Below are positions 1,199-19,440 of a stretch of 64,000 nucleotides of DNA, in pieces (the first letter of the stretch is position 1; the number at the start of each line of letters is the position of its first letter). The notes beneath the pieces are model-generated. The model made no database searches and was not told the DNA's origin. It was given only the letters and a program-made list of their open reading frames with translations. Made by a program: the position numbers and the translations under genes. The stretch lies in assembly GCF_057098645.1 (NCBI RefSeq), contig NZ_CM169472.1. One strand, 5' to 3'.

Positions 1199-1864
1199 TT
1201 AATGCAGGCAGCACTGCTTAAATTTCTTACCACTACCGCACGGGCAAGGATCGTTACGCCCCGGTTTCTCTTCTGCTTTGATCGGTTGCTGAACAGCTTT
1301 TTCCTGCGGATGCGCCATCCAGTACGCATGTAGATCAAGCGCCGCCAGTCGAATGGCATCTACGCTCTCTTCAAACGCTTCTGGCGACATCTTCTCTACC
1401 CGCTCGAAGTTTTCCTCAGTACCGTGCAGCGCAATCGCCTCCAGCGCTGGTTTTAACGAATCGGGCAATGTTGACCAGTCAGAAAGTGCCACGCCCCGCA
1501 TATAGCCAAAGCACCACTCCTCAACAATCGTCAGCTCGCTGCCATCAACTTCTCGCAAGCCGAATAACGGCTCAAACTGCTCCGGGAATTCGTTCAGACG
1601 CTCTGCGGTATCGGCCATATGTTGAAAAGCCAGGTTCATAAAGCGCGTCATCTCTTTCTCTGACGCCCAGCGCGGCACATAGTCAGCCCCACCCCACACG
1701 GCAACCAGCCACTGTGCCGGTTCAATCTCTTGCGGAGAACTCAACACCGCCGTCAATAAACCGTCCAGCTCCGCCACATCAAGGATGGCGTGGTCAGTGT
1801 TGTATTTGGTCAGAATATCGTCCAGCCATTCCAACTCACTTTCGTTTAACGGTCCCGTTTTCAT
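1199..1864 (-). CDS. yecA: UPF0149 family protein YecA with C-terminal SEC-C metal-binding motif
   Basis: 221-aa ORF ending ...[20 protein letters not shown] (SecA-like metal-binding domain); position between tyrP and the leuZ tRNA operon as in E. coli. Confidence 0.88.
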
Positions 1865-1985
1865 ACGCTTTTCCTTGTGGATCTCAACTCGCCAGCACCT
1901 ATCTTACATGCCGGTCCGTATCAGAGATACTTTTTGAGTGGCTTTGCCGGTGATTAAAAATCAAGGAGGGTGTAACGACAAGTTG

Positions 1986-2115
1986 CAGGCACAAAAAAAC
2001 CACCCGAAGGTGGTTTCACGACACTGCTTATTGCTTTGATTTTATTCTTATCTTTCCCATGGTACCCGGAGCGGGACTTGAACCCGCACAGCGCGAACGC
2101 CGAGGGATTTTAAAT
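1986..2115. repeat. Left direct repeat (attL) of island: 130-bp copy of leuZ 3' end (56 nt) plus downstream terminator region
   Basis: 130 bp with one mismatch to 30579..30708; contains a tRNA-Leu 3' fragment (2060..2115, minus) and a hairpin/T-run copy (about 1993..2017). Confidence 0.85.
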
Positions 2116-2412
2116 TCTACGCAATATCAATGAGTTACATAGCAGTGCATTGCGAAACTTTGCTGACGTTGAATGGTCGTCTTTGCAACCACTGGCAGAA
2201 AATGGATAGCCGTAGATTGCGTTGAGCACAGAAACAGCACAGGGTAATCGTCTACTTGGTCCTGTAAAGGAGGTTGTTGCCACACAAGCTAAAGCGCTTG
2301 ACCTGCCCCCAGTATTCGGTACAACTGTCAGTTAGTAATATCTGTTCTGTGAACCGCTCTCTGAATGTGATCCATTCATAATCAGCGCTACCTTTAGAGG
2401 TTGAATACCCAG

Positions 2413-2440
2413 CCCCTGGTAAACATAACGTTCCAGGGGG
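2413..2440 (-). terminator. Putative rho-independent terminator downstream of the DUF262/DUF1524 gene
   Basis: Inverted repeat cccctgg...ccagggg just 3' of the minus-strand ORF ending at 2463. Confidence 0.4.
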
Positions 2441-2462
2441 TACTTTGCGATGAAGGATATTT

Positions 2463-4334
2463 TTACAGCGTAAATTCGTTTCCGGGTCCAGTGCCCAGGT
2501 TATTTACTATATAAGCATCTATTCTCTGATCATTAAATCGCCAGCAGTCAATGGCAAGATCCATCAGCAGGCGTTGCCTTGATGTGATGCTTTCCGCAGA
2601 CCAGTCTTGATATTCATATCCATATTTCAGCTTAAAGCGATTTAATGCAGTGTTATCACCAATTGAGTACTGGGAGTGGAGTAATCGAGTCATGATGATT
2701 TCAGAGTTTAAATATTCTGTTTGTTTTTTCAAAAACCAGTCTTCACTCAAATCATTGCAGTTATTGACAGACTGGTTAATTGTACCCTCTAATAATGTTA
2801 CATTACCAAGTTTGTAGAGATAACTTGTTCGATTTACATCAGAGAACTCCCCGTTTTCAGGGGCGTTTCGTACCGTCTGAGGAAGAATATGCTCAATTTG
2901 CATCTGCTGAATAGCCTGCTGGCTCTTTTCCGGAAAACCGCAAAGATGGCGGATATGATTCTCTAATCTACCCAATACATAACGTTGGCGATACTGAGGC
3001 GTAAAATTATAGTCATTAATAATTGAGAATCGTTCTTTAAATTCATCTAAACGCTCCACAACAAAAGGTATAAGTGTTGCTGAAACAACATTTGCAACCT
3101 CTGCTTTCGTTTTCACATCCCGAAGCTTTACAGCCCATTGAGTAAAGCGTTGCTCATATGTCTTCGATTGAATAGCCATTGTATTTGTAAAGAATAAAAA
3201 GCTCTCAAGTTGAGCACCTAAGAAATCCATTACATCATCTGAACAACTAATATCCAATGCCATTAGTAAAACCAAATGCTGACGTGAGCGATATTTATTA
3301 ATATATCCAATGTTACTTACGTTTGGAAAACGGATATTTTCACGCCAGTAGGCTGCTTCATTTGTTGCATTGACCAGGTTAGCGTATCGTTCTGATAATT
3401 TTTCCAATTCTTTGACGAGGACCATAGGGCGTGTCTTATACTGCAACGACAGTTCCCCCTCAGCTGAAATGATCCATTTATATATATCATCTTCACGCAA
3501 AATCCCGTGATGATATCGTGCCATCAGAAAGTAACGTAAAAAACGAAGCGGGTTATCACTTTCGCCGCAAGACTCAAGGTTATTAGTGATGGATTTCCAT
3601 GTTGTCTTTATTGCCGAAAACTGTTCTTCTTTTATCTGACTGAAAATCAAATTTTTAACAAGATCCATAGCATTAAGGCTGGCACCACGCTGATTGATCG
3701 TTTCGAAGATCTTTAATGCGCTACTTAAGTTCTCTGATTCAATGACAACCAGCTCAACTTTTGTTAAAAAAAAGCGAGCGAAGGAGATTAATCCATTCAA
3801 GCTATCTTGCAATTGGTATTTAAGATAATCACGAATGTGATCATACGCGTCAGCCATTTTTTTTACTGAAGCTGTTTCCGCAAAGGTATTGGTTTGCCCT
3901 TCAATTAACCGCGAAATAAATCCTCGACTTTCTTCATATTGAAGATCTAGTCTAATTAGATTTTCCTCACTATTAATATCATAACTAGAGAGCCATTCCT
4001 CAATAGTTTTCAGATATTCCAGCCCTTTTTTGTCAAGTGTATCCAATCTATCTTTTAATAGATCCCGTAAGGCACACATAGTGATGACAATAGTGGTCAA
4101 CCGCTGCTGTCCGTCAATAACATCATGCTTTTCCCCATTCTTTACGATAATAACAGAACCGAGAAAATAACCATTTTGATCTTTCTGCTCTGGTTGGTAT
4201 TCATTGTCTAAATCCATGAGAAACTGTTCAACCTGATCATCAACCTTCCATACATACTCACGTTGATAATCGGGAACTAAAAAATAATAATCGCTTAATT
4301 TTGATATATTTTTTACATCGGCTTCTATTTTCAT
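2463..4334 (-). CDS. DUF262 (ParB-like NTPase) / DUF1524 (HNH-like) fusion protein, GmrSD-like type IV restriction-type nuclease
   Basis: 623-aa ORF; N-terminal DGQQR motif typical of DUF262, C-terminal ...QIEHILPQ... His-Me finger-like motif typical of DUF1524; AT-rich. Confidence 0.65.
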   Translation of the reverse strand: MKIEADVKNISKLSDYYFLVPDYQREYVWKVDDQVEQFLMDLDNEYQPEQKDQNGYFLGSVIIVKNGEKHDVIDGQQRLTTIVITMCALRDLLKDRLDTLDKKGLEYLKTIEEWLSSYDINSEENLIRLDLQYEESRGFISRLIEGQTNTFAETASVKKMADAYDHIRDYLKYQLQDSLNGLISFARFFLTKVELVVIESENLSSALKIFETINQRGASLNAMDLVKNLIFSQIKEEQFSAIKTTWKSITNNLESCGESDNPLRFLRYFLMARYHHGILREDDIYKWIISAEGELSLQYKTRPMVLVKELEKLSERYANLVNATNEAAYWRENIRFPNVSNIGYINKYRSRQHLVLLMALDISCSDDVMDFLGAQLESFLFFTNTMAIQSKTYEQRFTQWAVKLRDVKTKAEVANVVSATLIPFVVERLDEFKERFSIINDYNFTPQYRQRYVLGRLENHIRHLCGFPEKSQQAIQQMQIEHILPQTVRNAPENGEFSDVNRTSYLYKLGNVTLLEGTINQSVNNCNDLSEDWFLKKQTEYLNSEIIMTRLLHSQYSIGDNTALNRFKLKYGYEYQDWSAESITSRQRLLMDLAIDCWRFNDQRIDAYIVNNLGTGPGNEFTL

Positions 4335-4391
4335 TTTATATCCTTACATAGCTGGATGAACACCATAGATCATACTGATCCCAGATCCAAT

Positions 4392-4901
4392 TCACAAACG
4401 AACAGGAGAGTAGACCCCTTCTACATTACAGCTATCTCCGTCATCAAAAATCAACTCTCCTGCACTATAACCATCCATGGATAAAATAGCCTTTTCATTG
4501 AGAGCCAGACTAAGGCACATTGATGTTTTTATCATATTATCTGTACCATAAATCTCATACCAGTTATCTTCTTTTTTAGAAACCTCTACCTCATACTTTC
4601 CTGAGTCAATATTAACCATGCTAAATACATTATCTACATCACATGAATCCTTGCTATCTGTAAAAATTATTTTTTTATCATAGCCATCAACCCTGAGATA
4701 TGCGTCTTCAGAATAAGCATAAACATAACAATATTTAGTATTAACAAAAGAATCCTTCCCAGTAATTTGATATAAATTACTATCTTTTCTTGTGACATTT
4801 ATTTCCCACGTATTGGCATGAACATAACCTGGAGCCAAAAACAGGGTTAATAAGAACGGTCCAATCTTGGCTTTAAAGTTTCTAACAATTTTGAAAAACA
4901 T
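4392..4901 (-). CDS. Secreted hypothetical protein with internal tandem duplication
   Basis: 169-aa ORF; N-terminal signal peptide (...LLTLFLAPGYVHA); two ~50-aa repeats each ending in a DSCDV/DSCNV motif; no recognisable family. Confidence 0.55.
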   Translation of the reverse strand: MFFKIVRNFKAKIGPFLLTLFLAPGYVHANTWEINVTRKDSNLYQITGKDSFVNTKYCYVYAYSEDAYLRVDGYDKKIIFTDSKDSCDVDNVFSMVNIDSGKYEVEVSKKEDNWYEIYGTDNMIKTSMCLSLALNEKAILSMDGYSAGELIFDDGDSCNVEGVYSPVRL

Positions 4902-4952
4902 AAAACCCCTTCTTATATAGTTCTGTAATATGTTAATTTAGCTGGGCTCTTA

Positions 4953-5708
4953 CTACATATCAGCCAACAACATCCCAGCCATGCCATCCAGCCGTTTCTT
5001 GACCTTTTCCCACCCAGGCATAACCTGCCCCATCAGGCGGTAAAACTCTTCACTGTGGTTGTGCTCAGCAACATGGCATAACTCATGTAGCAAAACATAA
5101 TCGATACATTCTGAGGATGCCTTAACCAGCCATGGATTCAGGGTCAGACAGCCTTTTGCTGAACAGTTGCCCCATTGCGTTTGCATCGCCCGCAGACGTA
5201 TCGGAGGACGCTCACTGACCCAAAGGGTCTGCGGAATCAGTAAATCAAGCCTGCGCTGAAAAACATCTCTGGCACGTTCCCGATACCATTCAGCCAGCAA
5301 GGCTTTAATCTTTTCTGCCGATTTGTGTCTGACAGTCACTTCCAGACGCCCACGCAACATTTTCACTCGTTGCGGCACAGTAGCGTCTTCTGTCACTTTC
5401 AACTGATATTGCTTACCGAGATAATAATGGCTTTCTCCGCTGACATACTGACGCGGAACAATGTGTGTCTGTTGCTCCCTGAAATCACGCAGTTGCTGGT
5501 ATATCCAGCGCCCACGTTTTTTCAGCGCAGACAATACCTCGTGCTCCGGTGTTTCAGGCGGTACAGAGGCCACAACCCGGCAGTCCGGATAAACCTTGAT
5601 GAGCACCCTGCCCTTTACGACCTGACGCGGAACACACTGTACGACGATGACCTCATCACCATAGACAATGCGTAACGCTTTCATTGATGGCGATTCTTTT
5701 TCACTCAT
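4953..5708 (-). CDS. DUF45 / M48-like zinc metallopeptidase (YgjP-like)
   Basis: 251-aa ORF with HELCHVAEHNH (HExxH) motif; start overlaps hsdR stop by 4 bp, implying co-transcription; this family commonly follows hsdR. Confidence 0.7.
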   Translation of the reverse strand: MSEKESPSMKALRIVYGDEVIVVQCVPRQVVKGRVLIKVYPDCRVVASVPPETPEHEVLSALKKRGRWIYQQLRDFREQQTHIVPRQYVSGESHYYLGKQYQLKVTEDATVPQRVKMLRGRLEVTVRHKSAEKIKALLAEWYRERARDVFQRRLDLLIPQTLWVSERPPIRLRAMQTQWGNCSAKGCLTLNPWLVKASSECIDYVLLHELCHVAEHNHSEEFYRLMGQVMPGWEKVKKRLDGMAGMLLADM

Positions 5709-8700
5709 GATTTCATCAAACCAACGCGCAGTATCTGGATGATGGTTTCCACAATACGGTTAACCTGATTCATTCCGGCACCAATTTCCCGGCAGGCCGT
5801 AAACAGCAGTGGTAGCAGACTTGTCTTAACGACTTTCTCAATGTCCTGGGGGTTCAGGGAGTTTTCTGCCACCGCTTTGACGATAATGTTGTCCACGTCA
5901 AAAGCCAGCTTCGTCCACTTATCCTGCACTTGAACGTCTTTTACCACAAAAACCTCAGGTAGCTCTTTTTTAAATACACCGTAATATGCCTGAGCATGCT
6001 TGTTTACCGCCAAAGCATCCGGGATATCACTGAGCTTACGGGCTTTAACCTGTTCTTCAAACTCACGGAATAAGAGGTACTGCTTAAGTGGATGGTCGAA
6101 CAGTTTTTCAGCCTCTTCGATTGCCATACGCAGGAGTCTGGAAAAGGCCTCCTGAGCATACGGATCATCACGCAGCTCCTGCTCAATCATCTTCGTCACA
6201 CGGGTTTTAATGATGTCGGTTTCATTGCGGGTTTTATTGTTATCCCACTCTTCGGGTTTTTCGCTCTTGCCCATTTTACCGACTTCATACACGCCATCCG
6301 GTTCACGAACCTCAACGCCGGTAACATGCTTATCCAGCAATTTTTTCACCTGCTCAGCGTAGTCGTCATAATTGACCTGCTCTCCACTTACCTGCATCGC
6401 CCACTGGCGAAGGCTGGACATCTGTTTTACGGTTTCTTTATAGAGATTTCGGTCTTGTTCCGTAAAGCTCTTGTCGGTGAAGAAGGTAGCGGACTGCAGT
6501 GCCACTTTCAGGCATCCGGCAAAGGCCGTTAACGCCTCGAAGAAATCATCACGGGTTTTCTGATGGATATCGACCATCTCTCCGTCACGTTCTTCCATTT
6601 TAGGCACCAGTACTGCACGTAACTGCTCAGTATCATTTTTGTTTTTAACACCGGCAAATATGGCCCACAACTGGTTATACAGATGCGGCAGACGTTTATA
6701 TTCAGAGCTCATGGCGCTGTACAGCCCGTCAATATCCTTGATGTCGTATCCTCCCTGGGTTCGGGAGGCGAGATCCTGATATTTGCCGATAGTCGTGTCC
6801 AGTTCAGCCAGAATGCCGCGATAATCAATCAGCAGGCCAAACTTTTTCAGTGGATGCAGACGGTTTACCCTTGCAATCGCCTGGATAAGGTTGTGGGACT
6901 TAAGCGGCTTGTCGATATACAGCACGGTATTCTTCGGTTCATCAAATCCGGTGAGCAGTTTATCAACGACGATCAGTAATTTGAGCTTATCATCAGTATC
7001 GAAACGACTGATGATATTGCGGGTATACACAGACTCATCCTGCATGCCGACGTTATCTTTCCACCATTTCGTCACTTCCGGCAGTTTGCTTTCATCCACC
7101 TCAGTATTCCCTTCCCGGGTATCCGGCGGGCTGATAACTACAGCTGACTCAAACAACCCGGCTTCATCAAGATACTTTTTATATTTGATGGCGGAAATCT
7201 TGCTGTCGCAGGCAAGTTGGCCTTTCAGCCCCTCATCAATATTCTTCGAGAAGTGTGTGGCGATATCGAGTGCGATCAGCCGGATGCGGTCATCTGCACT
7301 GTAGACCTCACCTTTACGGGCATATTTACGTTTAAGGTCGGCTTTTTGCGCTTCGCTTAACCCATCGGTAATACGGTCAAACCAGGCATCTATTGCCCGA
7401 TCGTTAACCTCAAGGTCGGGAATACGTTCTTCATACAGCAAAGGTGTAACGGCTTTATCTTCTACCGCTCGCTGCATGGTATAAGCGTGGACAATCGGCC
7501 CGAATTTATTGGTGGTCTTATCTTCTTTTAGCAATGGCGTACCGGTGAATGCCACAAAGGCGGCGTTCGGCAGTGCCAGTTTCATTCGCACATGGTTCTC
7601 ACCCCCCTGGCTGCGGTGTCCTTCATCAATCAGAACGATGATGTCGGGGCTGGTATTGACGCATTCAGGCAATTTTGTCGCTGAGTTAAATTTCTGGATA
7701 AGGGTAAAGATTATACGTTCTTTACCAGAGCCAATCTGCTGTGCCAGCTTCTGACCTGAGGTCGCCATCGCTTTGGCCTTATCATCCTTCCCTGCCAGTT
7801 CGCCACCAGAGACAAAAGTGCCGCTGAGCTGCCCTTCAAGGTCCACGCGGTCCGTCACCACCACAATACGACACTGCTTCAGGCTGTCATGAAGGATCAG
7901 CGCCTTGCTGAGGAATACCATGGTGTAAGATTTACCTGACCTCGTGGTATGCCAGATCACCCCACCTTCCCTGCCCCCGTCTGGTCTGCGGGTACTGATG
8001 CGTTCCAGCAGTCTTTTTATCCCGAACACCTGCTGATAGCGGGCAACAATTTTTCCGGTTTTTTTATCAAACAGGGTGAAGAAGCGGGTCATCTCCAGCA
8101 GACGTTCCGGTGAAAGCAGACTGATGAGCAGCTTATCCTGCCCGCTGACTGCCAGTTCCCCCCCATCGATTAACTGTTGATACCATTTGAGATCGACTGA
8201 AGGACGATGATCAAACAACGCATGAATTTGTTCAGTCGATAACTGATGGTTGCGCAGCGCATACATCTGCGGATCGGTAATATCTTCTTCGCGCCATGCC
8301 GCCCAGAATTTCATTGGCGTATGGCATGTACCGTAGCGCCCGTCATGACCGTTAATCGAAAGTAATAACTGGCTGTAGACAAACAGCTGCGGGATTTCAT
8401 CGTTGAACTGGTTGCGGATACTCTGGGATATCCCCTCGTCAATGGTTGGCCCTTTCTTGCCATGACCAGCCGGGCTTTTCGCTTCAATAACAGCCAGCGG
8501 GATACCATTAACAAAGCAGACAATATCCGGTCTGCGGGTTTCAACACCGCCTGACCGCAATACCGTAAATTCTTCAGTAAAATGGAACTGGTTATTTTCC
8601 GGATGTTCCCAGTCGATCAGCGCAATGGTGGGGTTGACCTTCTTGCCATCGACAAATTCGGTGACGGCGATACCGTAGAGCAGATGGTTATACATCCGTT

Positions 8701-8989
8701 CATTGGCTTTGAGCAGCCCTTCATTCAGCGCCGGAGAACAGACCTGTGATATCAGGTTATCCAGTGCTTTTTCCGATAACTGGCAGTTTTTGCCACCCGC
8801 CATAAAGGAACGCTTCGACAGCTCTTCACGCAGAACCGGACGCAGCACCACCTCATCCTGTTTATAGCCCCGGTAATCCATAATCTGTTTCGGAGATAAA
8901 AACGTCCAGCCGAGGCTGGTCAGTAACGTCAGTGCCGGGATTTTGGCGCTGTATTCTTCCTGGAATTTAGGTTGGTAGTGCTTATCCAC
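5705..8989 (-). CDS. hsdR: Type I restriction enzyme R (restriction/translocase) subunit
   Basis: 1094-aa ORF with helicase-type motifs (e.g. VLIDEGHRSQ DEAH-like box); operon context with hsdM/hsdS. Confidence 0.88.
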   Translation of the reverse strand: MDKHYQPKFQEEYSAKIPALTLLTSLGWTFLSPKQIMDYRGYKQDEVVLRPVLREELSKRSFMAGGKNCQLSEKALDNLISQVCSPALNEGLLKANERMYNHLLYGIAVTEFVDGKKVNPTIALIDWEHPENNQFHFTEEFTVLRSGGVETRRPDIVCFVNGIPLAVIEAKSPAGHGKKGPTIDEGISQSIRNQFNDEIPQLFVYSQLLLSINGHDGRYGTCHTPMKFWAAWREEDITDPQMYALRNHQLSTEQIHALFDHRPSVDLKWYQQLIDGGELAVSGQDKLLISLLSPERLLEMTRFFTLFDKKTGKIVARYQQVFGIKRLLERISTRRPDGGREGGVIWHTTRSGKSYTMVFLSKALILHDSLKQCRIVVVTDRVDLEGQLSGTFVSGGELAGKDDKAKAMATSGQKLAQQIGSGKERIIFTLIQKFNSATKLPECVNTSPDIIVLIDEGHRSQGGENHVRMKLALPNAAFVAFTGTPLLKEDKTTNKFGPIVHAYTMQRAVEDKAVTPLLYEERIPDLEVNDRAIDAWFDRITDGLSEAQKADLKRKYARKGEVYSADDRIRLIALDIATHFSKNIDEGLKGQLACDSKISAIKYKKYLDEAGLFESAVVISPPDTREGNTEVDESKLPEVTKWWKDNVGMQDESVYTRNIISRFDTDDKLKLLIVVDKLLTGFDEPKNTVLYIDKPLKSHNLIQAIARVNRLHPLKKFGLLIDYRGILAELDTTIGKYQDLASRTQGGYDIKDIDGLYSAMSSEYKRLPHLYNQLWAIFAGVKNKNDTEQLRAVLVPKMEERDGEMVDIHQKTRDDFFEALTAFAGCLKVALQSATFFTDKSFTEQDRNLYKETVKQMSSLRQWAMQVSGEQVNYDDYAEQVKKLLDKHVTGVEVREPDGVYEVGKMGKSEKPEEWDNNKTRNETDIIKTRVTKMIEQELRDDPYAQEAFSRLLRMAIEEAEKLFDHPLKQYLLFREFEEQVKARKLSDIPDALAVNKHAQAYYGVFKKELPEVFVVKDVQVQDKWTKLAFDVDNIIVKAVAENSLNPQDIEKVVKTSLLPLLFTACREIGAGMNQVNRIVETIIQILRVGLMKS

Positions 8990-9058
8990 CCGGTAATCCT
9001 TCTTGGCTAAGAGGTGAAACTGTATGTCCTTACGGACATACTCAAAATGAACGAAGAC

Positions 9059-10843
9059 TTATGATGAAAAGAACGGCGAGTCCCGATAAAGGCGATTGTA
9101 CTTGACCTGTTCTGTTTCGCCCTTGTTTACATTACCAAATTTCTCCTGATGCGTCGTACAGCAGGAACCACAGGATGCACAAATAAATCGTCCTTCTGAA
9201 CATTTTTCATGCAAATCCCTGGCGTCAATTATTTCGCTGCATTTGTAACCAATACAGTGATTAATGTAATGCCCGATACCAAACTGTTCGCACGAATGAC
9301 TGGCACATTTAAAGACGGTCAGGCGATACGCGGCCTGGAAAGGTTTTTTCACAAATCCTTTCGACTTTGTATCCCAGACGCTGACTTCCACACGAGCATA
9401 TTTCATATCTGGAACCATCAGCACCCCACAACTTCGGCAATGCAAGCGGGAATGTAATTCTCTGATACGATTGAAATACCCAGCCAGTTTAATTGGGAAA
9501 TCCCGCTTAGAAGGTTCGCCTGCAATCAGATAGGTCATGCCATAGTGGGCAAGCCAGTCATAAATAGTGAAGTCGATGTAATCCCGACTGAGGTCGGGTA
9601 GTACCTGCGGATCATGGCAGATTTTCGAACGACAAAGGAATTTTTTCTCTATCGTTCCGTCAGGTTGTTTTGCATTCCAGTGAAATGCCTCACAGGATAA
9701 TTTTAAATTCCGGGAACGAATTTTCAATGAGCTACACTGTGGGAACAATTTGAAAACAGAAGGATGGCTTACCGGGATTTTACCCGACAACACTCCCTGC
9801 CATATCTCATGCAGAATAATACTCAGAACGGACTGTTCATCGTTACGCCCAATCAGCGGTAACAATTTACTCAGAATAAAGTATTCAGGGTCAGAAGAAA
9901 TTTCAGTATTCGACTCAATATCATTAACAAAACTGAAATCTTTCCTGAACATCTTCTGTTTAATCAAATACTTATTGACAAAAGGACTAATCACGGAATG
10001 TTTATAAAATTGCTCTCTCGATGAGAATTTCTGCTGATAGGCATCACGGACAAATGGTTGTATATCCATTTTATTTTTCGTGAAACTACGTCGAACAAAA
10101 TTCTCTATATCATCATGCCGATGTTCAAGAATCCGCTCGCTGCTTATACAATCGTAAAATGCCAGGTAGAGAATAGCACTTATAGATATATGGCTGAGTA
10201 ATTCATTGATGATGTCCGATGTTGAAGCCCCCTGGCAATCCGTAGCCGCAGAACACCTTTTCACCCAAACAGCGAACTGATCAATGTTATTATCGATAAA
10301 TGACGAAGGCATGACTGCAGGAGATATTTGTTGTGCGGTCAAATCATCAAAATTCTTATCAGAGGCGAAAAGTGCAAACTGGTTATCGTAGTTACGTGAT
10401 TTTAAAAATAGCGGCAAGACTTTTGTAGCAGCTATATCACTGGTAACTAACCGAATTATAGCCCTTTCGCCAAAGGACTGAGTGAGAAAATTAATAACGC
10501 AGTCACGATAACGCCAACGAGCGAAATCAACGCCCTCCTCAATAATAGCCCGGAGATATTCAATAAGGAGCTCAGCCGTCTCCTCATCTGTTTTATCAAG
10601 AATGTGAACATTAAAAGCCGTAGGCTTACCATTTTTACCTGTACCTTCCCTGAACAGCACCGGTGCATTGTCTGCGGGTGTATAGTTCCGGCTTATCTCA
10701 TTCTTATGAAAAAACAGCTCATTACCATTCTCTGATAAGAGAAAGCCAAAGTTATTCTCCCGATCCGTTTTGCTGTTGTAGCCTCCGAACCAGAGAACAT
10801 TTCCCATGTACCACCGGGAACGATCCAGATTGTTCACTGCCAT
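9059..10843 (-). CDS. Hypothetical protein: N-terminal cold-shock-like (OB-fold) domain, large unknown middle region, C-terminal Cys-rich zinc-ribbon-like region
   Basis: ORF 9059..10921; start chosen at internal Met (MAVNNL...) to avoid a 56-bp overlap with the upstream gene; N-terminal NNFGFLLSENGNELFFHKNEI resembles the CspA-type GFGFI...VFVH motif; C-terminus has clustered CxxC / CxH / CxxC motifs. Confidence 0.55.
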   Translation of the reverse strand: MAVNNLDRSRWYMGNVLWFGGYNSKTDRENNFGFLLSENGNELFFHKNEISRNYTPADNAPVLFREGTGKNGKPTAFNVHILDKTDEETAELLIEYLRAIIEEGVDFARWRYRDCVINFLTQSFGERAIIRLVTSDIAATKVLPLFLKSRNYDNQFALFASDKNFDDLTAQQISPAVMPSSFIDNNIDQFAVWVKRCSAATDCQGASTSDIINELLSHISISAILYLAFYDCISSERILEHRHDDIENFVRRSFTKNKMDIQPFVRDAYQQKFSSREQFYKHSVISPFVNKYLIKQKMFRKDFSFVNDIESNTEISSDPEYFILSKLLPLIGRNDEQSVLSIILHEIWQGVLSGKIPVSHPSVFKLFPQCSSLKIRSRNLKLSCEAFHWNAKQPDGTIEKKFLCRSKICHDPQVLPDLSRDYIDFTIYDWLAHYGMTYLIAGEPSKRDFPIKLAGYFNRIRELHSRLHCRSCGVLMVPDMKYARVEVSVWDTKSKGFVKKPFQAAYRLTVFKCASHSCEQFGIGHYINHCIGYKCSEIIDARDLHEKCSEGRFICASCGSCCTTHQEKFGNVNKGETEQVKYNRLYRDSPFFSS

Positions 10844-10865
10844 GAGCAAGCCCCCTTCCGCTTTG

Positions 10866-11549
10866 TCAGTGCAGGCAGCACTTTTTAAATTTTTTACCAC
10901 TGCCACACTGACACGGGTCATTACGACCGGGCAGTTTTTCTGCCCCCTTCACGGGAACAGGCCGGGATGATGCCTCTGACATTCTCACCGACAACCAGTG
11001 CTGGTAAAGCGCCAGTGCCGCAGGCTGAATGAGAGTAATACTCTGTTCAAATTGAACAGGTGACATTTTCTCAACCACTGGGAAGTTCTTTTCAATACCA
11101 TGAAGGGCTATCGCCTCCAGCGAGGGACGTAAGGCCTCTGGCAAGGCTGACCAGTCATCCAGAGACCGGCCTTTCATATACCCGAAACACCACTCTTCGA
11201 CGATGGTATATGTCTTCCCCTTCACCTCACGTCCATTGAAAATCGGTTCAAACTGTTCAGGGGCCTCATACAGGCAGCCAGCGATATCGTTCATATGCTG
11301 AAAACACAGCCCCACAAAACGCGTCATCTCTTTTTCAGTGGTCCAGCGAGGGTGGTAATCACCTCGCCCCCAGATAGCACTGAGCCAGGTATTAGGGGAA
11401 ATCGTATTCGGGCCAGAGACAATCGCCGTCAGAAAGCCATCCAGCTCAGAGAAACAGAGCACAGAGTCATCATTGCCGTATTTCATCAACACCTCTTCCA
11501 GCCAGTCGATTTCCCGGTCAATCAGCGGCCCGCTTTTCGTCAGTTTCAT
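10866..11549 (-). CDS. YecA-like UPF0149 / SEC-C motif protein (island-borne paralog of core yecA)
   Basis: 227-aa ORF alignable over its whole length with YecA (1199..1864), roughly half identical by eye; same C-terminal [20 protein letters not shown] motif; start abuts the hsdS stop. Confidence 0.8.
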   Translation of the reverse strand: MKLTKSGPLIDREIDWLEEVLMKYGNDDSVLCFSELDGFLTAIVSGPNTISPNTWLSAIWGRGDYHPRWTTEKEMTRFVGLCFQHMNDIAGCLYEAPEQFEPIFNGREVKGKTYTIVEEWCFGYMKGRSLDDWSALPEALRPSLEAIALHGIEKNFPVVEKMSPVQFEQSITLIQPAALALYQHWLSVRMSEASSRPVPVKGAEKLPGRNDPCQCGSGKKFKKCCLH

Positions 11550-12189
11550 TCGGCAACCGCCTCATCGACCTTAACACGACGTTTGCCAGTCAGTAGCTGT
11601 TGCATCAGGGCTTTTTTCTCGTCTTTCAGGCAGGCGAGTTTTTTCTCCAGCGTGGAGATTTCAGCGTCGGCAGCGGAAAGGACGGCGGCGATTTTTTGTT
11701 GTTCTTTGATATCTAATGGCAACCTAAAGTCTTTCTCTTTAAGTTCTCGCATATGTCTGCTGTAACCTAAATTCGGAATATCTGTATTTGAAAGAAGATA
11801 GTATCCAAGTTTTGGTTCAAGTATTTTGCTAGTTTTTATTACTTGCGTTCCATCAGCACCGGGACAAAACACAAACTCAATCCATTTGACGCATCTTGTA
11901 TGATCGCCAAAAACAATCACAGGCACGTCCGAATAAACCTCTAAATTATTACAGTACCCAGCAATTCGACTTTGCCCTTGATCGATTATAGGGATGGAAC
12001 CTGACTGTAAATAATCGGAAGATTTGACTTGCGCCGATTTTTTATTTGCAACAATGAAAGCATTATCAAACGTTAAATATACCCACTCCCCATTAAACCT
12101 CCCCCCATTCTCATCCAGCAAGCGTTTTTGTCCGGTAAGCAATTGCTGCATCAGGGCTTTTTTCTGTTGCTGGCTGTTGGTGAGAAGCG

Positions 12190-13245
12190 GCTTTGTTGAA
12201 TAAATCAGATTTCGGGTAAGTCTCCCCCGTAGCGGGTTGTGTTTTCAGGCAATACGCACGCTTTCAGGCATACCTGCTTTCGTCATTTTGTTCAGCGCTC
12301 GTACCAGGGCCATAGCCTCCGCAACCTGACCATCGTAGTCACGCAGCGTCAGTGAACCCCCGAACAGCTGTTTTACCCGGTACATCGCCGTTTCCGCTAT
12401 CGAGCGACGGTTGTAATCTGTTGTCCATTTCCACCGCGCATTACTCCCGGTCATTCGCTGATTAGCCACTGCACGGTTACGGTCTGCATATTCACCGGGC
12501 CAGTAGCCCGCACCTTTTCGGGGAGGGATAAGCGCGCTGATTTTCTTACGCCGCAGTTCATCGTGACATAGCCGGGTATCGTAAGCGCCATCGGCGGCGG
12601 CTGACCTGATTTTCCGGTGGGTTTGCCGGATTAACCCGGGGAAGGCCTCTGAGTCCGTAACGTTGTTCAGCGACAGGTCTGCACAGATGATTTCATGTGT
12701 TTTACTGTCAACGGCGAGATGCAGCTTACGCCAGATACGGCGGCGTTCCTGGCCATGCTTTTTGACTTTCCACTCGCCTTCACCGAAGACCTTCAGCCCG
12801 GTGGAATCAATCACCAGATGTGCGATTTCACCCCGGGTGGGCGTTTTGAAACTGACATTAACCGACTTTGCCCGCCTGCTGACACAGCTGTAATCCGGGC
12901 AGCGTAGCGGAACGTTCATCAGAGAAAAAATGGAATCAATAAAGCCCTGCGCAGCGCGCAGGGTCAGCCTGAATACGCGTTTAATGACCAGCACAGTCGT
13001 GATGGCAAGGTCAGAATAGCGCTGAGGTCTGCCTCGTGAAGAAGGTGTTGCTGACTCATACCAGGCCTGAATAGCTTCATCATCCAGCCAGAAAGTTATG
13101 GAGCCACGGTTGATGAGGGCTTTATTGTAGGTGGGCCAGTTGGTGATTTTGAACTTTTGCTTTGCCACGGAACGGTCTGCGTTGTCGGGAAGATGCGTGA
13201 TCTGATCCTTCAACTCAGCAAAAGTTCGATTTATTCAACAAAGCC
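12190..13245 (-). mobile_element. IS5-family (IS903-group) insertion sequence, copy 1
   Basis: ~1057 bp; terminal inverted repeats GGCTTTGTTGAATAAATC at both ends; flanked by 9-bp target-site duplication GTGAGAAGC (12181..12189 and 13246..13254). Confidence 0.85.
12245..13213 (-). CDS. IS903-group (IS5 family) transposase
   Basis: 322-aa ORF; DDE transposase with ...LIDSTGLKVFGEGEWKVKKHG...WRKLHLAVD... region; identical protein encoded at 28742..29710. Confidence 0.88.
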   Translation of the reverse strand: MKDQITHLPDNADRSVAKQKFKITNWPTYNKALINRGSITFWLDDEAIQAWYESATPSSRGRPQRYSDLAITTVLVIKRVFRLTLRAAQGFIDSIFSLMNVPLRCPDYSCVSRRAKSVNVSFKTPTRGEIAHLVIDSTGLKVFGEGEWKVKKHGQERRRIWRKLHLAVDSKTHEIICADLSLNNVTDSEAFPGLIRQTHRKIRSAAADGAYDTRLCHDELRRKKISALIPPRKGAGYWPGEYADRNRAVANQRMTGSNARWKWTTDYNRRSIAETAMYRVKQLFGGSLTLRDYDGQVAEAMALVRALNKMTKAGMPESVRIA

Positions 13246-13815
13246 GTGAGAAGCTTTTCCGTCACCGAAATCGCCTCATCCCAGGTTGACAGAATTTTAA
13301 CGATTCTCTTTTGTTCAGACAGTGGGGGGATATTAAATGGCCACTTAAACCAACTATCTAACTTAAAAATCATTTTCTCTATGTGCACACCAATGCTAGA
13401 GTGGAAGCAGGTTTGCTGGAAATATAGAGACTCCGATAGAAATTCCATATAAGGAAGATAAAAACCGGACTTCCCTGTAAGCACACAATATTCATTCGAT
13501 ACAATTGAGCCAGAAAGTTCTTTAGGTACAAGACCGCAAGCACCGTGCACAATTTGTCGTTTTGATATGAGAAAGTCGCCTTCTTTAATATAGAATTGAC
13601 TTTTTACGGAGATATCTTTTCCTTTAAGATGCTCACGTCTTATTACGCCACCTCTGGAGCGCTTTACTGTAACTAAGTCATACTCTTGATTATCTTGTAT
13701 ATATGCCTTTCTTGCCTCTATATTTAAGCACTTTTCTAATGATAACTTTTGCCATCCTGTAGGTAGCATTCCAAGGATCGGTTTTCCAGCTTTAACGCTC
13801 ACTGGGTAAAGCGAA

Positions 13816-15339
13816 TCACGAGCCATAACCCAACTCCTTCAAATACCCTGCCATCTCAACTTCCAGCTTCGCCAGTTCCACCTTCAGTTGCTCACGCTCT
13901 GCTCGCACCGCCACCAGGTCAATCTCATCCTCTTCTTCAAAGGTATCGACATAGCGCGGAATATTGAGGTTGTAATCGTTGTCCTGAATTTCCTTCAGGC
14001 TGGCAAGATAGGCGTATTTCTCGACGTTATCGCCATCACGGTAGGTCTTGACGATTTTCTTAATGTTTTCTTCGCTAAGCTGGTTCTGGTTTTTACCTGC
14101 CTTGAATTCACGGCTGGCATCGATAAACAGCACCTTGTCATCAACTTTCTACTTTTTGAAAATCAGAATCGCAGCCGGAATCCCCGTACCGTAGAACAGT
14201 TTTTCCGGCAGACCAATTACCGCATCCAGCAAATTTTCGTCGATCAGTTTCTGGCGAATTTTACCTTCGCTGGAGCCACGGAAAAGCACACCGTGTGGCA
14301 CAACTACGCCCATACGGCCAGTTCCCGGTTTCAGGGTTTCGATCATATGCGAGATAAAAGCGTAATCTCCTTTAGTCTTCGGCGGTACACCGCGACGAAA
14401 ACGGCCAAACTTATCGTTCTCGGCCTCGTCATGGCCCCACTTATCGAGGCTGAACGGTGGGTTAGCGGTCACGATATCAAACAGCATCAGGTCGCCATTT
14501 TTATCGAGCAGCTTCGGGTTACGAATGGTATCGCCCCACTCGATTTTATGGTTGTCTTCCCCGTGCAGGAACATATTCATTTTCGCCAGCGACCACGTAG
14601 AACCGATCGCTTCCTGACCGAACAAGGCATAGTTACGACTATCATGCCCGGAGACAATTTTACGCCCACACTTCATCAATAATGAACCGGAACCACAGGC
14701 TGGATCGCAGATGGTATCACCCGGTTGCGGATCGAGCAGTTCTGCAATCAGGTCCGAAACTTCCGGCGGGGTATAGAACTCCCCGGCTTTCTGCCCACCG
14801 CTGGCGGCAAAGTTTTTGATCAGGTATTCGTAAGCATTGCCGATAACGTCCAGCGTACCGACACGACTCGGCTTCAGGTTGAGATCTTCACCGGCGAAGT
14901 CTTCCAGTAGCTGACGCAGTATGGTGTTTTTCTGTTTTTCTTCGCCAAGACGATCGGTGTTAAACGAAATATCCTGGAACACGCTTTTCCCGGCATCTTT
15001 CAGTTTGGTTCCGTTGGCTTCTTCGATTGCATGCAGAGCCTGATCGATACGCTCACCGTTACCCAGCTCATGGCGGCGTTCGTACAGCGCATAAAAGCTG
15101 GCACTTTTTGGCAGTACAAAACGCTCGTTGGCCATCATCGCTTCAATCAGTTCCGGCGCATCGCCATACTGTTCTTTGTATTCGTCATAGTGATCCTGCC
15201 AGACATCTGAAATGTACTTGAGGAACAGCATGGTAAGGATAAAGTCTTTATAGGTATCAGCACTGATGGTGCCACGGAACGTATCACACGCGGCCCACAG
15301 GGCTTTGTTGATCGTGTCCTGACTGATTTTGTCGTTCAT
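13816..15339 (-). pseudogene. hsdM: Type I R-M methyltransferase subunit hsdM with in-frame amber stop
   Basis: ORFs 14149..15339 (396 aa, N6-adenine MTase motifs incl. ...IVTANPPFS...) and 13816..14133 (105 aa) are in the same frame, separated by a TAG at 14149..14151. Confidence 0.75.
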
Positions 15340-15642
15340 GAATCATCCTGGTCTGAAGAAAAAGCTAGCGATGCAGGGCTTTGCATCTTAAAAATTGCGG
15401 TAAATGATACCGTAAGATGCCTCCCCTGACACGCCAATATCGCAGCATTCAGGTTTGCATCATCCCCGTAATATCGACATGAGACAGACTGACACAACCT
15501 GGCTCGTCACTCGCTAAAAACCAATTATCTTAGTAAGATAGCATCCATATTAGCCATGGTGTAAAACTGCCGTTGGGGTAATGATGATCCATATATCACC
15601 CATTCTGGTGTGTGAAGCTGACATCATCCATAATCGGCAACG

Positions 15643-16878
15643 TTGATGCCCTTTGATAGTAATGATGACCGTCAATGTGATTCCCCTGCTGACTGGAGGT
15701 CTCCGGATAGAATGAGTATTGCCAACTGCGCTATCGGCCCACTTTATGATGAGCAAATAAAAAAAACACTTATGTATGCTGACCATAAATTCAAGCGGCT
15801 AATGAATACACGAATGTCGTTACTCGAACATTTATCACCCCACTATGACTTATCTTCCATGTTCAGCTATGAGTTGGAGGGAAGAGTTTTTCGGATTAAA
15901 TTGATCAAGCCTGAGATTAAATTATCTCGCCAGCAGTTGATCTTCTCCTCACTCTTTTTAGAGCAAGATTTTCTAAAAGAATATAAAAAACACATCTCAA
16001 ATACTCTACAAAAAACAATCAAACAGTGCATTAAAAAATACAAACAAAAAATCAAAATCGAGCCTTCTATTTTAGATTACATATCAGCATCACCCCGCAA
16101 TACGTCGAGTTATGTATTACATGAGATAGTTTCTCAATGTGAACATTGCGATGAAATTCGCAATATTAAAAATGATATATTGCTTGATGAACTAACGTTG
16201 AATGGCCGGATCACTAACATTTCAAAATACATTAAAAATAGTCAAGATAAAATCGTCGAACATATAGAGTTCTGCACTCATAAACTTGTCAATATAAGTC
16301 GTAAGAATCGTCACATTTTCAACAGCACCACAATACCTGGTAGAAAACCTAACATCACTGGTGTTTTACTTTGCCTTTCGGAATTGATAAGCAACCTGCA
16401 TATTTACCCAACTGAAATTAATAATATAAGCAATGCCATAATATTAAGCATTGTATACTCTGTACTTCAACATCTTCAATCTGGAAGAGAAACAGAAAAA
16501 ACCAAAACCTCTCCAGCACTGAATTTCATCCCCACCATCATCGCACCTCATGTTTTCTACCTGGCGAAACGCGAAAAATCCTCTCAATATAAATACATTG
16601 AAAAAGAATATCTTCTCGGCCAGTTACTTATATTTTTGATGTATAAAACAGTTTACTACTCGATTCATAGCATCAGGGTAAGCCGTAAGCATTTCTATAA
16701 CGATATAAAACCAAAATTAATGACACTAAAAAAAGAAAGCTTATTAAGCACCAATTTCATGAAAAATCGAAGAGAGATTAGTGGTGAAGTCTTTGGTGAT
16801 GTTGGTAGTATTGAGGCTGATTTTCGAGAAATCAGCACATTGATTCATCGGCGAAAGGCTCTGTTTATTTCCTTTTAA
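15643..16878 (+). CDS. Hypothetical protein, AT-rich orphan ORF
   Basis: 411-aa ORF in a very AT-rich block; Lys/Ile/Asn-rich; no recognisable motif; true start may be an internal Met. Confidence 0.4.
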   Translation: MMPFDSNDDRQCDSPADWRSPDRMSIANCAIGPLYDEQIKKTLMYADHKFKRLMNTRMSLLEHLSPHYDLSSMFSYELEGRVFRIKLIKPEIKLSRQQLIFSSLFLEQDFLKEYKKHISNTLQKTIKQCIKKYKQKIKIEPSILDYISASPRNTSSYVLHEIVSQCEHCDEIRNIKNDILLDELTLNGRITNISKYIKNSQDKIVEHIEFCTHKLVNISRKNRHIFNSTTIPGRKPNITGVLLCLSELISNLHIYPTEINNISNAIILSIVYSVLQHLQSGRETEKTKTSPALNFIPTIIAPHVFYLAKREKSSQYKYIEKEYLLGQLLIFLMYKTVYYSIHSIRVSRKHFYNDIKPKLMTLKKESLLSTNFMKNRREISGEVFGDVGSIEADFREISTLIHRRKALFISF

Positions 16879-17279
16879 TCTTTAGAGAACACTATATCAT
16901 CGTGAAGCAGAGCTAATTTCAGCCTTGCATAGATCATTATCAATGCCATAGACAGTGTTAATCATATGACATCGTTCCGGTATTGATACTGATTATCAGG
17001 CCTTGGTTTTATGTAATTTAAACACCACCATCTCTGAAACCCCATAACGCTCACAATTTAACCATAAAAACTAACCGGTTTATACCCGCTAACAAAATCA
17101 ATAACATATTGAATTTAAATAACTATAACCATTCCAACTACAGATGACTGGCTTTTATTTATGGTATATGTCCCGGCAGAATCAAGCTTGCGCCCTCTAC
17201 CACTCACGATTTAGGATTTCCTCGCTAACACAGCATGTTTCATTATAAATCAATGTATTAATTTAAACGAGGATAAACC

Positions 17280-18126
17280 ATGTTCGAGAAAATGAAAAAC
17301 AATGTAACCCGTGTACCGGGGAATTTAACCATACTTAATCAATACCAAAAAGACATTGATCACCTGTCTAAATTATTTTCTGAACAGCTATTACTGGATC
17401 TAATGACGACTACCAACCCTAATCAAACATTGCAAATGAAACCTTCTGTAGATATTCTTCATGTACTATCTCCATCAGCATCCACTGCTAACCATATCAA
17501 TTTTTTTCAGCACGTCCCAGTGATCGAACTATGGTTAAAAAAGGAGTGCACTGCCTTTAATTCACTTGCTATTTATTTCTATGCACAGCAATCCCGTAAA
17601 AATGTCATTCCGAAAAAAAATCTGTAGACAACTGGACGTATTTATTAATACTGAACTTGCATCTGCGGTTAATGGCAATAGTAATTCTAAACCCCTTTTT
17701 CATTTTCTAAATAACTACCTTTATCATCCTAAAATGATTGCATTGATCATTTTATCTATGCTGCCTTATGAAGTCATTCGTAACGATGAATCACTGAGTG
17801 AGTTTAAAACACCATTAACCACACCCGATGAGTTTATTATCAAAGCATTTTGCGTTAAAGGTACGCAAAACACCACGGGACATAAAAAAGATATCGAACA
17901 ATTGCTTCGAAAAACATATATCTACATTGCATTACTTTTGAACCCTGAGTGGGTACCATCATCCAAGGATTTGATTTCCTTTTTATCAGGAGAGTCCACC
18001 GAGATAAGTGGTTCAATGAATTTCCAGTCAACGTCCAGTGGTCTGGGTGTTCAAACTAACAATATCACTCTTCTTAAGAATGAGGTTTACTTCGAAAAAA
18101 TAGCGAACAAGATCATGAAACTGTAG
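17280..18126 (+). pseudogene. Hypothetical AT-rich gene split by +1/-1 frame change at an A8 tract
   Basis: ORFs 17280..17627 and 17566..18126 overlap in different frames across the homopolymer AAAAAAAA at 17613..17620; removing one A fuses them into a ~282-aa ORF. Confidence 0.45.
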
Positions 18127-18269
18127 TTTCTTAATATAATGGCGACATGGAATTGTGTTGCCATTATATCCGAATCAGAATTTTTCACCTGATGAACTGT
18201 GAAAACTGAGACTGGCAGACAGTAATCTCGCACCGTATTTTTTCTGTGTTATTTTACAGGAGAAATACG

Positions 18270-19400
18270 ATGCCCATTCTGGATCTGCGTTTCAGCAACA
18301 AATCACTTCACCAACTTCCCCATCCCCTCACGGGCTGTCAGGAATACCGTGATATTCACTGCCAAAACCTGCGTGCTCTGGTGTATCCCAATCGGATCAC
18401 GCTGGCCTTTCGTGCCACTATAAACAATCAGCGTATATATGAACCCCTGGGTCAGTTCCCTCAGCTCTGCGTTGAGGATGCCCGTCAGCATGTGATGAAA
18501 CTGCTTGCTGATAAAAATCGTCTTGCGGTTCAGTCCCGTCGATTCACTGTGGAACAGGCCATCAATGACCTGTGGCTACCGGATTTGCAGTTGTATAAAA
18601 AGAGTCCTCAGTCAGAGTTGTCAAAACTCAACCTCTACGTTCGCCCGTTCTGGGGCAAGCGGCAACTTCGCGACATCACGGCAGGAGAACTAGAACAATA
18701 TGCTGCTGGCTTACGGGAAAAATTACGTCCGTCAACAGTAAACCGTATCCTCGCAATATTGTCCAAAATATGCTCTCTGGCAGTACGTGCTGGATGGATC
18801 ACGCATTCCCCGATGTCACATGTCCGCTATCTGAAAGAAAATAACATTCGCTATCGCACACTATCAGCGACAGAAATCCCGCGCTTTATTGACGCGGCAA
18901 CAGCGCTGCAAACACCGGCAGCTGATTCTATATTGCTTGCTCTTTATACGGGGATGCGTATTGGTGAGGTATGTACCCTGAAATGGGAGTACTGGCACCT
19001 GGATATGCATCAACTCATACTGCCTGATACAAAGTCCGGACACCCTTTCACCTGCCCACTTGCACCTCCAGCCATTGCAGTTGTCCAGTGCCAGCAGGAC
19101 CTGATGCTCAGCAAAACTTACATTTTTCCGCGACTAACCGACAATGCCCGCCCTCTGGCATATCCGCGTGCAACCTTTGCCCGTATTTGCCGGGATGCCG
19201 ACATTGATAACCTGCGGATGCATGACCTGCGCCGTACCTTTGCCACCCGGGTACTACAGGCGACCGGGGATATTGCAATCGCTTCCCATCTGCTAAATCA
19301 CCATTCACTCACGGCGACCCGTCGCTACGCTTTTCACAATGCAGCGACATCACACGCAGTGGTTTCTCAGGTCATTGAAAGTTATGACACGAAAAAATGA
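18270..19400 (+). CDS. Tyrosine recombinase / phage-type integrase
   Basis: 376 aa from the ATG at 18270, which is preceded by AGGAG; C-terminal catalytic region ...HDLRRTFATRVLQ...HLLNHHSLTATRRYAF (R..H..R..Y). Confidence 0.85.
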   Translation: MPILDLRFSNKSLHQLPHPLTGCQEYRDIHCQNLRALVYPNRITLAFRATINNQRIYEPLGQFPQLCVEDARQHVMKLLADKNRLAVQSRRFTVEQAINDLWLPDLQLYKKSPQSELSKLNLYVRPFWGKRQLRDITAGELEQYAAGLREKLRPSTVNRILAILSKICSLAVRAGWITHSPMSHVRYLKENNIRYRTLSATEIPRFIDAATALQTPAADSILLALYTGMRIGEVCTLKWEYWHLDMHQLILPDTKSGHPFTCPLAPPAIAVVQCQQDLMLSKTYIFPRLTDNARPLAYPRATFARICRDADIDNLRMHDLRRTFATRVLQATGDIAIASHLLNHHSLTATRRYAFHNAATSHAVVSQVIESYDTKK

Positions 19401-19440
19401 ACCAATGATCTGTGATTCGTGAAAGCAGTTCGCAGAAAGA

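Follow-up and report, generated by a model that had tools for sequence, protein, structure and literature searches.

We analyzed a stretch of 64,000 nucleotides (hereafter, the window) from contig NZ_CM169472.1 of RefSeq assembly GCF_057098645.1, focusing on three minus-strand genes at positions 2463 to 5708 that lie downstream of hsdR, the restriction-subunit gene of a type I restriction-modification (R-M) system. In the direction of transcription, they encode a 251-amino-acid (aa) zinc metallohydrolase of the YgjP-like/DUF45 family, a 169-aa predicted exported protein, and a 623-aa putative nuclease of the GmrSD family (DUF262 plus DUF1524), and all three open reading frames (ORFs), together with the 1094-aa hsdR, were found where an earlier note, written from the nucleotide letters, had placed them (Table 1). 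Judged by its sequence, the window is an Escherichia coli O145:H28-type chromosome, the region being 100% identical to E. coli O145:H28 chromosomes, and the three genes occupy the end of a genomic island that is most distant from its tRNA gene.

Table 1. Position, strand, and supporting evidence for the features of the cassette and the island edge (window coordinates)
Feature	Position	Strand	Evidence
Left island boundary: copy of tRNA-Leu 3' part and downstream terminator	1985-2113	.	Direct repeat of 30580-30709, read from sequence
623-aa GmrSD-family (DUF262 + DUF1524) putative nuclease, HEC-06-like	2463-4334	-	Pfam, PADLOC, motifs, Foldseek
530-bp single-gene cassette carrying the 169-aa gene	4383-4912	-	82% DNA identity to Leclercia island
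169-aa predicted exported protein, two ~65-aa beta repeats with a Cys pair each	4392-4901	-	Sequence features, AF2 (AlphaFold) model
251-aa YgjP-like/DUF45 zinc metallohydrolase	4953-5708	-	Pfam PF01863 3.1e-58
hsdR, intact 1094-aa type I restriction subunit	5705-8989	-	Pfam HSDR_N, SWI2_SNF2, T1R_D3; PADLOC REase_I 1366 bits; TIGR00348
620-aa protein, weak cold-shock-like N-terminal domain, Cys-rich C-terminus (CSD protein)	9059-10921	-	Pfam CSD 1e-4, below cut-off
YecA-like protein (UPF0149 + SEC-C)	10866-11549	-	Pfam UPF0149, SEC-C; PADLOC candidate PDC-S12 8.5e-98
hsdS in two target-recognition halves	11546-12151 + 13215-13826 (span 11546-13826)	-	Pfam Methylase_S on both
IS5-family transposase splitting hsdS	12245-13213	-	Pfam DDE_Tnp_1
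hsdM in two ORFs, 396 aa (14149-15339) and 105 aa (13816-14133)	13816-15339	-	Pfam

A mobile cassette with a variable slot after DUF45

All eight genes of the cassette recur intact and in unchanged order (hsdM, hsdS, yecA-like, CSD protein, hsdR, DUF45, 169-aa gene, and DUF262 gene) on the IncFIB plasmid NZ_CP031809 of Klebsiella pneumoniae INF206, and the six proteins compared between the window and this plasmid are 97.6-100% identical. DNA homology to the cassettes of Klebsiella pM941-a and Leclercia sp. J807 ends at window positions 4952-4955, within three bases of the DUF45 stop codon. Beyond that stop, pM941-a carries in the same slot two adjacent DUF262 genes (483 and 680 aa, in a TgvAB-like layout) and the anti-phage gene hhe, and Leclercia carries PDDEXK_4, AAA_15, and dynamin-like genes with a homolog of the 169-aa gene among them. 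The pM941-a type, examined over stretch 13616-23024, is the commoner cassette variant in Klebsiella. From the DUF45 stop to the island end, the only block of DNA homology to the Leclercia island is the 530-bp segment around the 169-aa gene, the product of which is 76% identical between the two, as compared with 96-98% for HsdR, DUF45, and the CSD protein. Base composition shifts as well, GC content being ~0.49 for hsdR and DUF45 and 0.33-0.39 for the two genes that follow. From the homology breakpoint and the differing downstream genes, it follows that DUF45 closes a conserved backbone and that all beyond it is swappable cargo, and the locus cleanly illustrates a cargo slot fixed in position right behind the DUF45 stop codon. 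The contents of this slot vary between cassettes, and here the 169-aa single-gene cassette comes first, followed by a putative single-gene GmrSD-family enzyme. We consider it probable that the segment is the downstream end of a mobile defense cassette, intact on Klebsiella IncF plasmids and captured in an E. coli island at leuZ, and that its three genes are independent modules.

The earlier note had instead treated the three genes as an accessory trio, and while it was right about the individual genes, about DUF45 being coupled to hsdR, and about the type I system being decayed, its grouping did not hold up, given that homology ends at the DUF45 stop, that the 169-aa gene moves alone, and that the GmrSD-like gene stands alone elsewhere. 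A functional version of that grouping would have all three genes form one accessory system, with, e.g., DUF45 or the secreted protein regulating or partnering the GmrSD-like nuclease. The gaps between the genes measure 51 nucleotides (DUF45 to 169-aa gene) and 57 nucleotides (169-aa to 623-aa gene), and a ribosome-binding site precedes each downstream gene. In favor of such a system are the shared strand, the short gaps with no clear terminator, the joint presence of the three genes on Klebsiella plasmids and in 143 of 5426 complete E. coli genomes, and the precedent of TgvAB, a two-protein GmrSD system. Yet every joint occurrence is a near-identical copy of one cassette (99-100% identity). 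Outside that cassette, no GmrSD gene was seen beside 169-aa homologs in the neighborhoods inspected (n = 8 outside E. coli and Klebsiella, from seven homolog look-ups), GmrSD-like homologs at 60-75% identity never adjoin a 169-aa gene, and one protein is predicted to be exported while the other is predicted to act on cytoplasmic DNA. Together with the breakpoint at the DUF45 stop, these observations leave a co-functional trio highly improbable. It does weigh against full independence that, with one strand, short gaps, and no convincing terminator, all three genes could be co-transcribed with hsdR, and co-expression could hide a functional link; a promoter and terminator scan returned counts not above shuffled expectation and is therefore silent on transcription units. 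Separately, the 169-aa protein was considered as a partner or inhibitor of the GmrSD-like enzyme and was rejected as such, on the lack of co-occurrence outside the near-identical cassette and on the different predicted compartments.

The neighboring type I system is decayed, as the earlier note had read it. An insertion sequence (IS) of the IS5 family separates the two halves of hsdS, which is an intact 404-aa gene in strain 16003 and on the Klebsiella plasmid, and hsdM is broken such that HsdM_N and N6_Mtase positions 4-232 fall on one ORF and N6_Mtase positions 242-310 on the other; the annotation of a sister strain lists hsdM as a pseudogene cut by an IS3 element. Among the components of a functional type I R-M system, the window thus holds an intact hsdR and no intact hsdM or hsdS. 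Because hsdM and hsdS are dead, HsdR, and presumably DUF45, would be idle in this strain. One might extend this picture and regard all of the genes as inactive remnants riding along with a decaying R-M cassette, in line with the broken hsdM and hsdS, the several IS elements of the island, and the lack of an obvious role for HsdR and DUF45 without their M and S subunits. However, the three ORFs and hsdR are full length and 98-100% identical to the intact plasmid copy, and every family-invariant catalytic residue and all four cysteines described below are kept, such that we hold the remnant explanation to be very unlikely.

DUF45 is paired with hsdR across phyla

The DUF45 protein matches PF01863 at 197.6 bits (cut-off 26) over profile positions 3-205 of 207, and carries HELCH at residue 208. 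Its zinc motif aligns with the zinc site of proabylysin, with a sequence match to 4JIU at 5e-6, and it shares with the minimal zincins of the YgjP-like/DUF45 group (PF01863, COG1451) and with the proabylysin-type minigluzincins the HExxH motif and a third His, while differing from them in belonging to an hsdR-linked subgroup. The residues of the site (H208, E209, H212, and H218, i.e., HExxH...H) are invariant in eight hsdR-linked DUF45 homologs of bacterial and archaeal origin.

The stop codon of hsdR and the start codon of DUF45 overlap within ATGA, and DUF45 is predicted from this overlap to be translationally coupled to hsdR. The earlier note had pointed to this overlap, and the link turned out to be stronger than it supposed, with the pair conserved across phyla. 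DUF45 homologs were found on 558 plasmid records, and in the abundant Klebsiella group the match overlaps the annotated hsdR. Eight distant plasmid homologs (28-53% identity) were examined, and six of them lie directly after hsdR, often overlapping it, in Acetobacter, Vibrio campbellii (where the gene table lacks hsdR and a tblastn search confirmed it), Bartonella, Roseicitreum, Rhodococcus, and the archaeon Haloferax. A type I operon of Vibrio cholerae likewise ends in DUF45. For a seventh distant homolog, on Synechocystis pSYSG, the stretch ends at the record end and the neighborhood was unread; the eighth, from Bacillus thuringiensis, is unlinked to hsdR and counts against a strict pairing. 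HsdR and DUF45 identities to the window pair fall in parallel (67/53, 58/46, 54/44, 38/37, 33/33, 30/28, and 29/33%), which is what co-inheritance as a unit predicts. DUF45 stands at the conserved end of this type I R-M backbone, and the pair spans Proteobacteria, Actinomycetota, and a haloarchaeon.

Functionally, DUF45 would be translated by coupling to hsdR, and it is most likely a zinc hydrolase that acts on or with HsdR. A bolder proposal, which we regard as possible but doubtful, is that DUF45 is a dedicated fourth component of a widespread bacterial and archaeal type I R-M lineage, namely a zinc protease controlling or removing HsdR, for instance during restriction alleviation or in clearing a stalled, DNA-locked enzyme. 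Comparative-genomic surveys of defense islands have reportedly associated COG1451 with type I R-M. In the literature searched, no functional study of hsdR-linked DUF45/COG1451/YgjP proteins with type I restriction was found, and the linkage appeared there only as labels on gene maps. Because the restraint and removal of type I enzymes from DNA are only partly understood, a dedicated hydrolase partner is worth testing, and this pair, which reaches from enterobacteria to actinomycetes and haloarchaea with an invariant zinc site, is, together with the 169-aa family, the part of the locus most deserving of experiment.

A putative single-gene GmrSD-family enzyme in the slot

Domain annotation of the 623-aa protein bore out the assignment to the DUF262/DUF1524 family proposed in the earlier note, with GmrSD_N (PF03235) at 2.3e-36 over residues 15-231 and GmrSD_C (PF07510) at 3.7e-20 over residues 428-592. 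Its best PADLOC match is HEC-06 (PDLC04157, 1.3e-79), aligned over residues 3-599 to profile positions 7-556 of 558. The protein carries DGQQR at residues 74-78, FETINQRG at 210, and EHILP at 481-485, and ten residues (D74, G75, Q76, Q77, R78, E481, H482, P485, N511, and N520) are invariant among 17 diverse homologs; the earlier note had named a missing His-Me finger or missing NTPase residues as the sign of an inactive remnant, and both motifs are intact. The family is large (>4800 matches) and shows ~55% identity between Enterobacterales, Vibrio, Bacteroidota, and Betaproteobacteria. An AlphaFold model of the protein (mean confidence score, pLDDT, 74) was matched by Foldseek to DndI (7.6e-12), SspE (9e-10), and BrxU (0.018), with global template-modeling (TM) scores to solved GmrSD-family folds reaching only 0.27-0.42 owing to differing domain orientations.

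In Yersinia and Atlantibacter, relatives sharing 72-75% identity are found by themselves in unrelated defense islands. The V. cholerae type I system that ends in DUF45 holds a relative at 60% identity between its hsdS and hsdR genes, and no neighbor gene is constant among the GmrSD-like relatives at 60-75% identity. These neighborhoods fit a self-sufficient single-gene system that often settles within or alongside type I operons. The embedding of GmrSD-like genes in type I systems has been explicitly noted before (Payne et al., bioRxiv 10.1101/2024.01.29.577857). In the V. cholerae operon, an AAA_15/AAA_21 ATPase gene and a 230-aa gene also adjoin the GmrSD-like gene (stretch 10003-11899), making two embedded systems. 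A 169-residue product beside the Atlantibacter homolog was considered as a relative of the 169-aa protein and was rejected, being an unrelated HNH fragment.

By analogy with characterized relatives, the 623-aa protein is most likely a modification-dependent type IV restriction enzyme. Its N-terminal DUF262 domain (DGQQR) would bind and hydrolyze a nucleoside triphosphate and sense DNA, and its C-terminal His-Me finger (E481, H482, N511, and N520) would cut DNA. Mutations in DGQQR or EH abolish HEC-06 defense (Payne et al., bioRxiv 10.1101/2024.01.29.577857). T4 is reportedly blocked by HEC-06, and a HEC-06 homolog at 22% identity gives protection against T4 and none against T4-GT7, whose cytosines are unmodified (bioRxiv 10.1101/2025.02.28.640651). 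As with HEC-06, BrxU, and Eco94GmrSD, the enzyme might attack modified-cytosine phage DNA that escapes type I restriction, and in this strain it is likely, again by analogy, the remaining restriction activity of the cassette.

Two points weigh against this assignment. The tested HEC-06 protein, WP_096851903.1, of which the first 133 residues were recoverable, is ~32% identical over 82 residues, and DndI and SspE, whose solved folds come nearest, are sensors of host phosphorothioate and not of phage base modifications. The 623-aa protein might then be a sensor of self-modification like SspE and DndI, or a nuclease with some other trigger. That idea gains from the structural matches, in which DndI and SspE are far ahead of BrxU, from PDB sequence matches that are weak and SspE-like only, from PADLOC SspE models that match the N-terminal domain, and from the published HEC-06 model, which is also nearer to SspE than to BrxU. 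SspE and DndI, however, are encoded with sspABCD or dndBCDE, and no dnd or ssp modification genes occur among the island ORFs or beside the relatives examined; further, HEC-06 models outscore SspE models (266 vs 69 bits), and HEC-06 family members block T4, one of them in a modification-dependent manner. A self-modification sensor or otherwise triggered nuclease is accordingly improbable in our view, and a modification-dependent type IV enzyme remains the preferred reading.

Among known systems, HEC-06 (PADLOC-DB v2) shares with the 623-aa protein the DUF262, helical linker, and DUF1524 layout with DGQQR and EH..P motifs, as well as a place in or next to another restriction system, and it differs in length (560 aa) and in being embedded in an Hma system rather than lying downstream of a type I system. 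Eco94GmrSD, EcoCT596GmrSD, and BrxU have the same two Pfam domains and the (D/E)H...N His-Me site. BrxU is moreover a structural match and a precedent for a modified-DNA nuclease complementing a system aimed at unmodified DNA, although it gave no sequence match in a PDB search with the 623-aa protein. The 623-aa protein differs from these classical GmrSD type IV enzymes in that the PADLOC mREase_IV model matches only its N-terminus (4e-14) and its catalytic His-Asn spacing is longer. TgvAB of V. cholerae VPI-2 (PMC11411939) is a further case of a GmrSD-type enzyme whose genes are attached to a type I R-M operon, but it needs two proteins and lies between hsdS and hsdR, whereas one protein lies after hsdR and DUF45 here.

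It is an established theme to combine a nuclease for modified DNA with a system directed at unmodified DNA (BrxU with BREX, TgvAB and likewise RloF with type I operons, and HEC-05/06 with Hma). The locus adds an example and no new principle, its twist being that the nuclease sits in the cargo slot after the DUF45 stop and not between hsdS and hsdR. Stacking a modified-DNA nuclease onto a type I system is ordinary, and the locus contributes beyond it two uncharacterized side components, DUF45 and the 169-aa protein. No literature citing the four RefSeq protein accessions was found.

A family of predicted exported proteins in defense loci and prophages

The small secreted repeat protein of the earlier note stood up to closer inspection, as the 169-aa protein is predicted to be exported and its two internal repeats are 38% identical (E=1e-16). 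Its N-terminus is basic and then hydrophobic and ends in A29 (VHA|N), with no lipobox. In an alignment of 19 full-length sequences (the window protein and 18 homologs), all have an N-terminal hydrophobic segment ending in this invariant Ala, and C58, C87, C129, and C158, two per repeat, are invariant. The AlphaFold model is all-beta with two similar units (pLDDT 85). No family match was obtained in Pfam, PADLOC, NCBIfam, PHROGs, or the PDB sequence search, with a sub-threshold Pfam Y_Y_Y match and NCBIfam matches far below cut-off judged to be noise, and nothing similar beyond generic small barrels was found among solved structures by Foldseek or among viral structures (BFVD at E<=0.001). A tblastn search of 50,697 phage genomes yielded only three weak partial matches, all in Helicobacter pullorum phage records.

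A profile search nevertheless recovered 798 cluster representatives, mostly ~160 aa long, such that the protein defines an uncharacterized family of ~800 clusters of exported domains. Of ten longer members scanned, eight combine the domain with PKD, Big_9, CARDB, or CarboxypepD_reg arrays, one has MORN repeats, and one has no Pfam match; in fused members, the domain is C-terminal to PKD, CARDB, or Big_9 domains. These fusion partners are extracytoplasmic architectures, and an export and binding role for the family is well supported as a prediction from sequence.

In E. coli, Klebsiella, and Leclercia, the gene follows this type I backbone, and seven of the eight neighborhoods inspected outside E. 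coli and Klebsiella are defense loci or prophage immunity regions, with one uninformative. One homolog lies inside a DISARM-like locus on a metagenome contig, and others share islands with HEPN_AbiU2 or with genes for TIR and caspase-helicase proteins. In Dickeya and Pectobacterium prophages, the homolog begins three bases after an Arc/Mnt-like ribbon-helix-helix (RHH) repressor gene that faces arc and ant, beside KilA-N/ANT, and in Yersinia prophages it lies beside tail genes; counted together, a homolog directly follows an Arc/Mnt-like repressor gene in three prophages (Dickeya, Pectobacterium, and Yersinia). On the map of phage P22, sieA adjoins mnt, and the prophage position of the 169-aa homologs resembles that of sieA in the immI region.

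Because the family recurs in defense loci and beside prophage maintenance repressors, we propose periplasmic phage exclusion, with modest confidence, as the best guess at its function. Tentatively, the 169-aa protein may be a new periplasmic phage-exclusion factor, carried as a single-gene cassette that shuttles between defense systems and prophage immunity regions; it would be a disulfide-bonded two-repeat beta protein acting outside the cytoplasm, independent of the nucleases. Like the superinfection-exclusion and moron proteins SieA, Cor, and Llp, it would be a small envelope-targeted protein, though it lacks sequence or fold similarity to any of them and is predicted to be a soluble two-repeat beta protein. 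The proposal draws on gene neighborhoods only, and this, with the absence of similarity to known exclusion proteins, speaks against it. A phage-unrelated role as a generic periplasmic or surface binding module (in stress, adhesion, or toxin-immunity) that hitch-hikes in variable regions is a serious contender that falls somewhat short of probable, and we see it as rivaling phage exclusion on nearly equal terms. It would accommodate the 798 clusters of the wider family, many of unknown context, the fused domains that terminate large surface proteins with PKD, CARDB, or MORN repeats, the missing similarity to exclusion proteins, and the uninformative neighborhood; the seven defense or prophage immunity neighborhoods among eight, and the position directly after an Arc/Mnt-like repressor in three prophages, argue the other way. 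With enterobacterial members in both defense loci and prophage immunity regions, the 169-aa protein is a cheap candidate for a screen of envelope-level phage exclusion.

Other cassette genes and the host island

The CSD protein and YecA-like genes are both embedded between hsdS and hsdR. The annotated start of the 620-aa CSD gene overlaps the YecA-like gene by 56 nucleotides, and the Leclercia gene call uses an internal Met for a 594-aa product; the true start is probably an internal Met near 10843. INF206 and Leclercia both carry the CSD gene in their cassettes, whereas the pM941-a variant lacks it. The YecA-like gene, which matches phrog_24700, is retained in both Klebsiella cassette variants, and its product is 57.5% identical to the chromosomal YecA encoded 9 kb away (1199-1864, minus strand). 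In the DISARM-like locus that harbors a 169-aa homolog, further genes code for a SEC-C-motif protein of 367 aa and a small protein with an S1 domain (examined stretch 12905-14008), so SEC-C motif proteins recur in two unrelated restriction loci.

The left flank of the island is formed by tyrP and yecA, and a tRNA cluster (leuZ-cysT-glyW) lies at 30653-30954, with the full tRNA-Leu at 30653-30739. A direct repeat of ~129 bp, with one mismatch between its copies, takes in the tRNA-Leu 3' part and, beyond it, ~70 bp of terminator region; it exceeds the usual length of an att core. Because this repeat with its tRNA-Leu 3' part flanks it, positions 2114-30652 can be taken as a genomic island of ~28.5 kb inserted at tRNA-Leu (leuZ). 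Most of window positions 1900-9100 is present in 133 of 5426 complete E. coli genomes, and positions 9000-31000 had no one-piece match in any single complete E. coli genome because of IS differences.

Besides the cassette, the island has integrase genes and several IS elements. A full-length tyrosine integrase lies mid-island (18246-19400, plus strand) and an Arm-DNA-binding integrase fragment near the tRNA end (27975-28553, minus strand), with IS21-, IS3-, and Mu-like transposase genes between the two, which suggests that the island was assembled by serial insertions. The IS5-family transposase that splits hsdS has a counterpart near the tRNA end (28742-29710, plus strand); both ORFs are 322 aa with identical Pfam scores, and, being inverted, the two copies could rearrange the DNA between them. 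Just inside the left end of the island, a 40-bp stretch (2300-2339) recurs at 100% identity in ~220 additional E. coli genomes from which the GmrSD and 169-aa genes are absent, which suggests a common island end with differing cargo.

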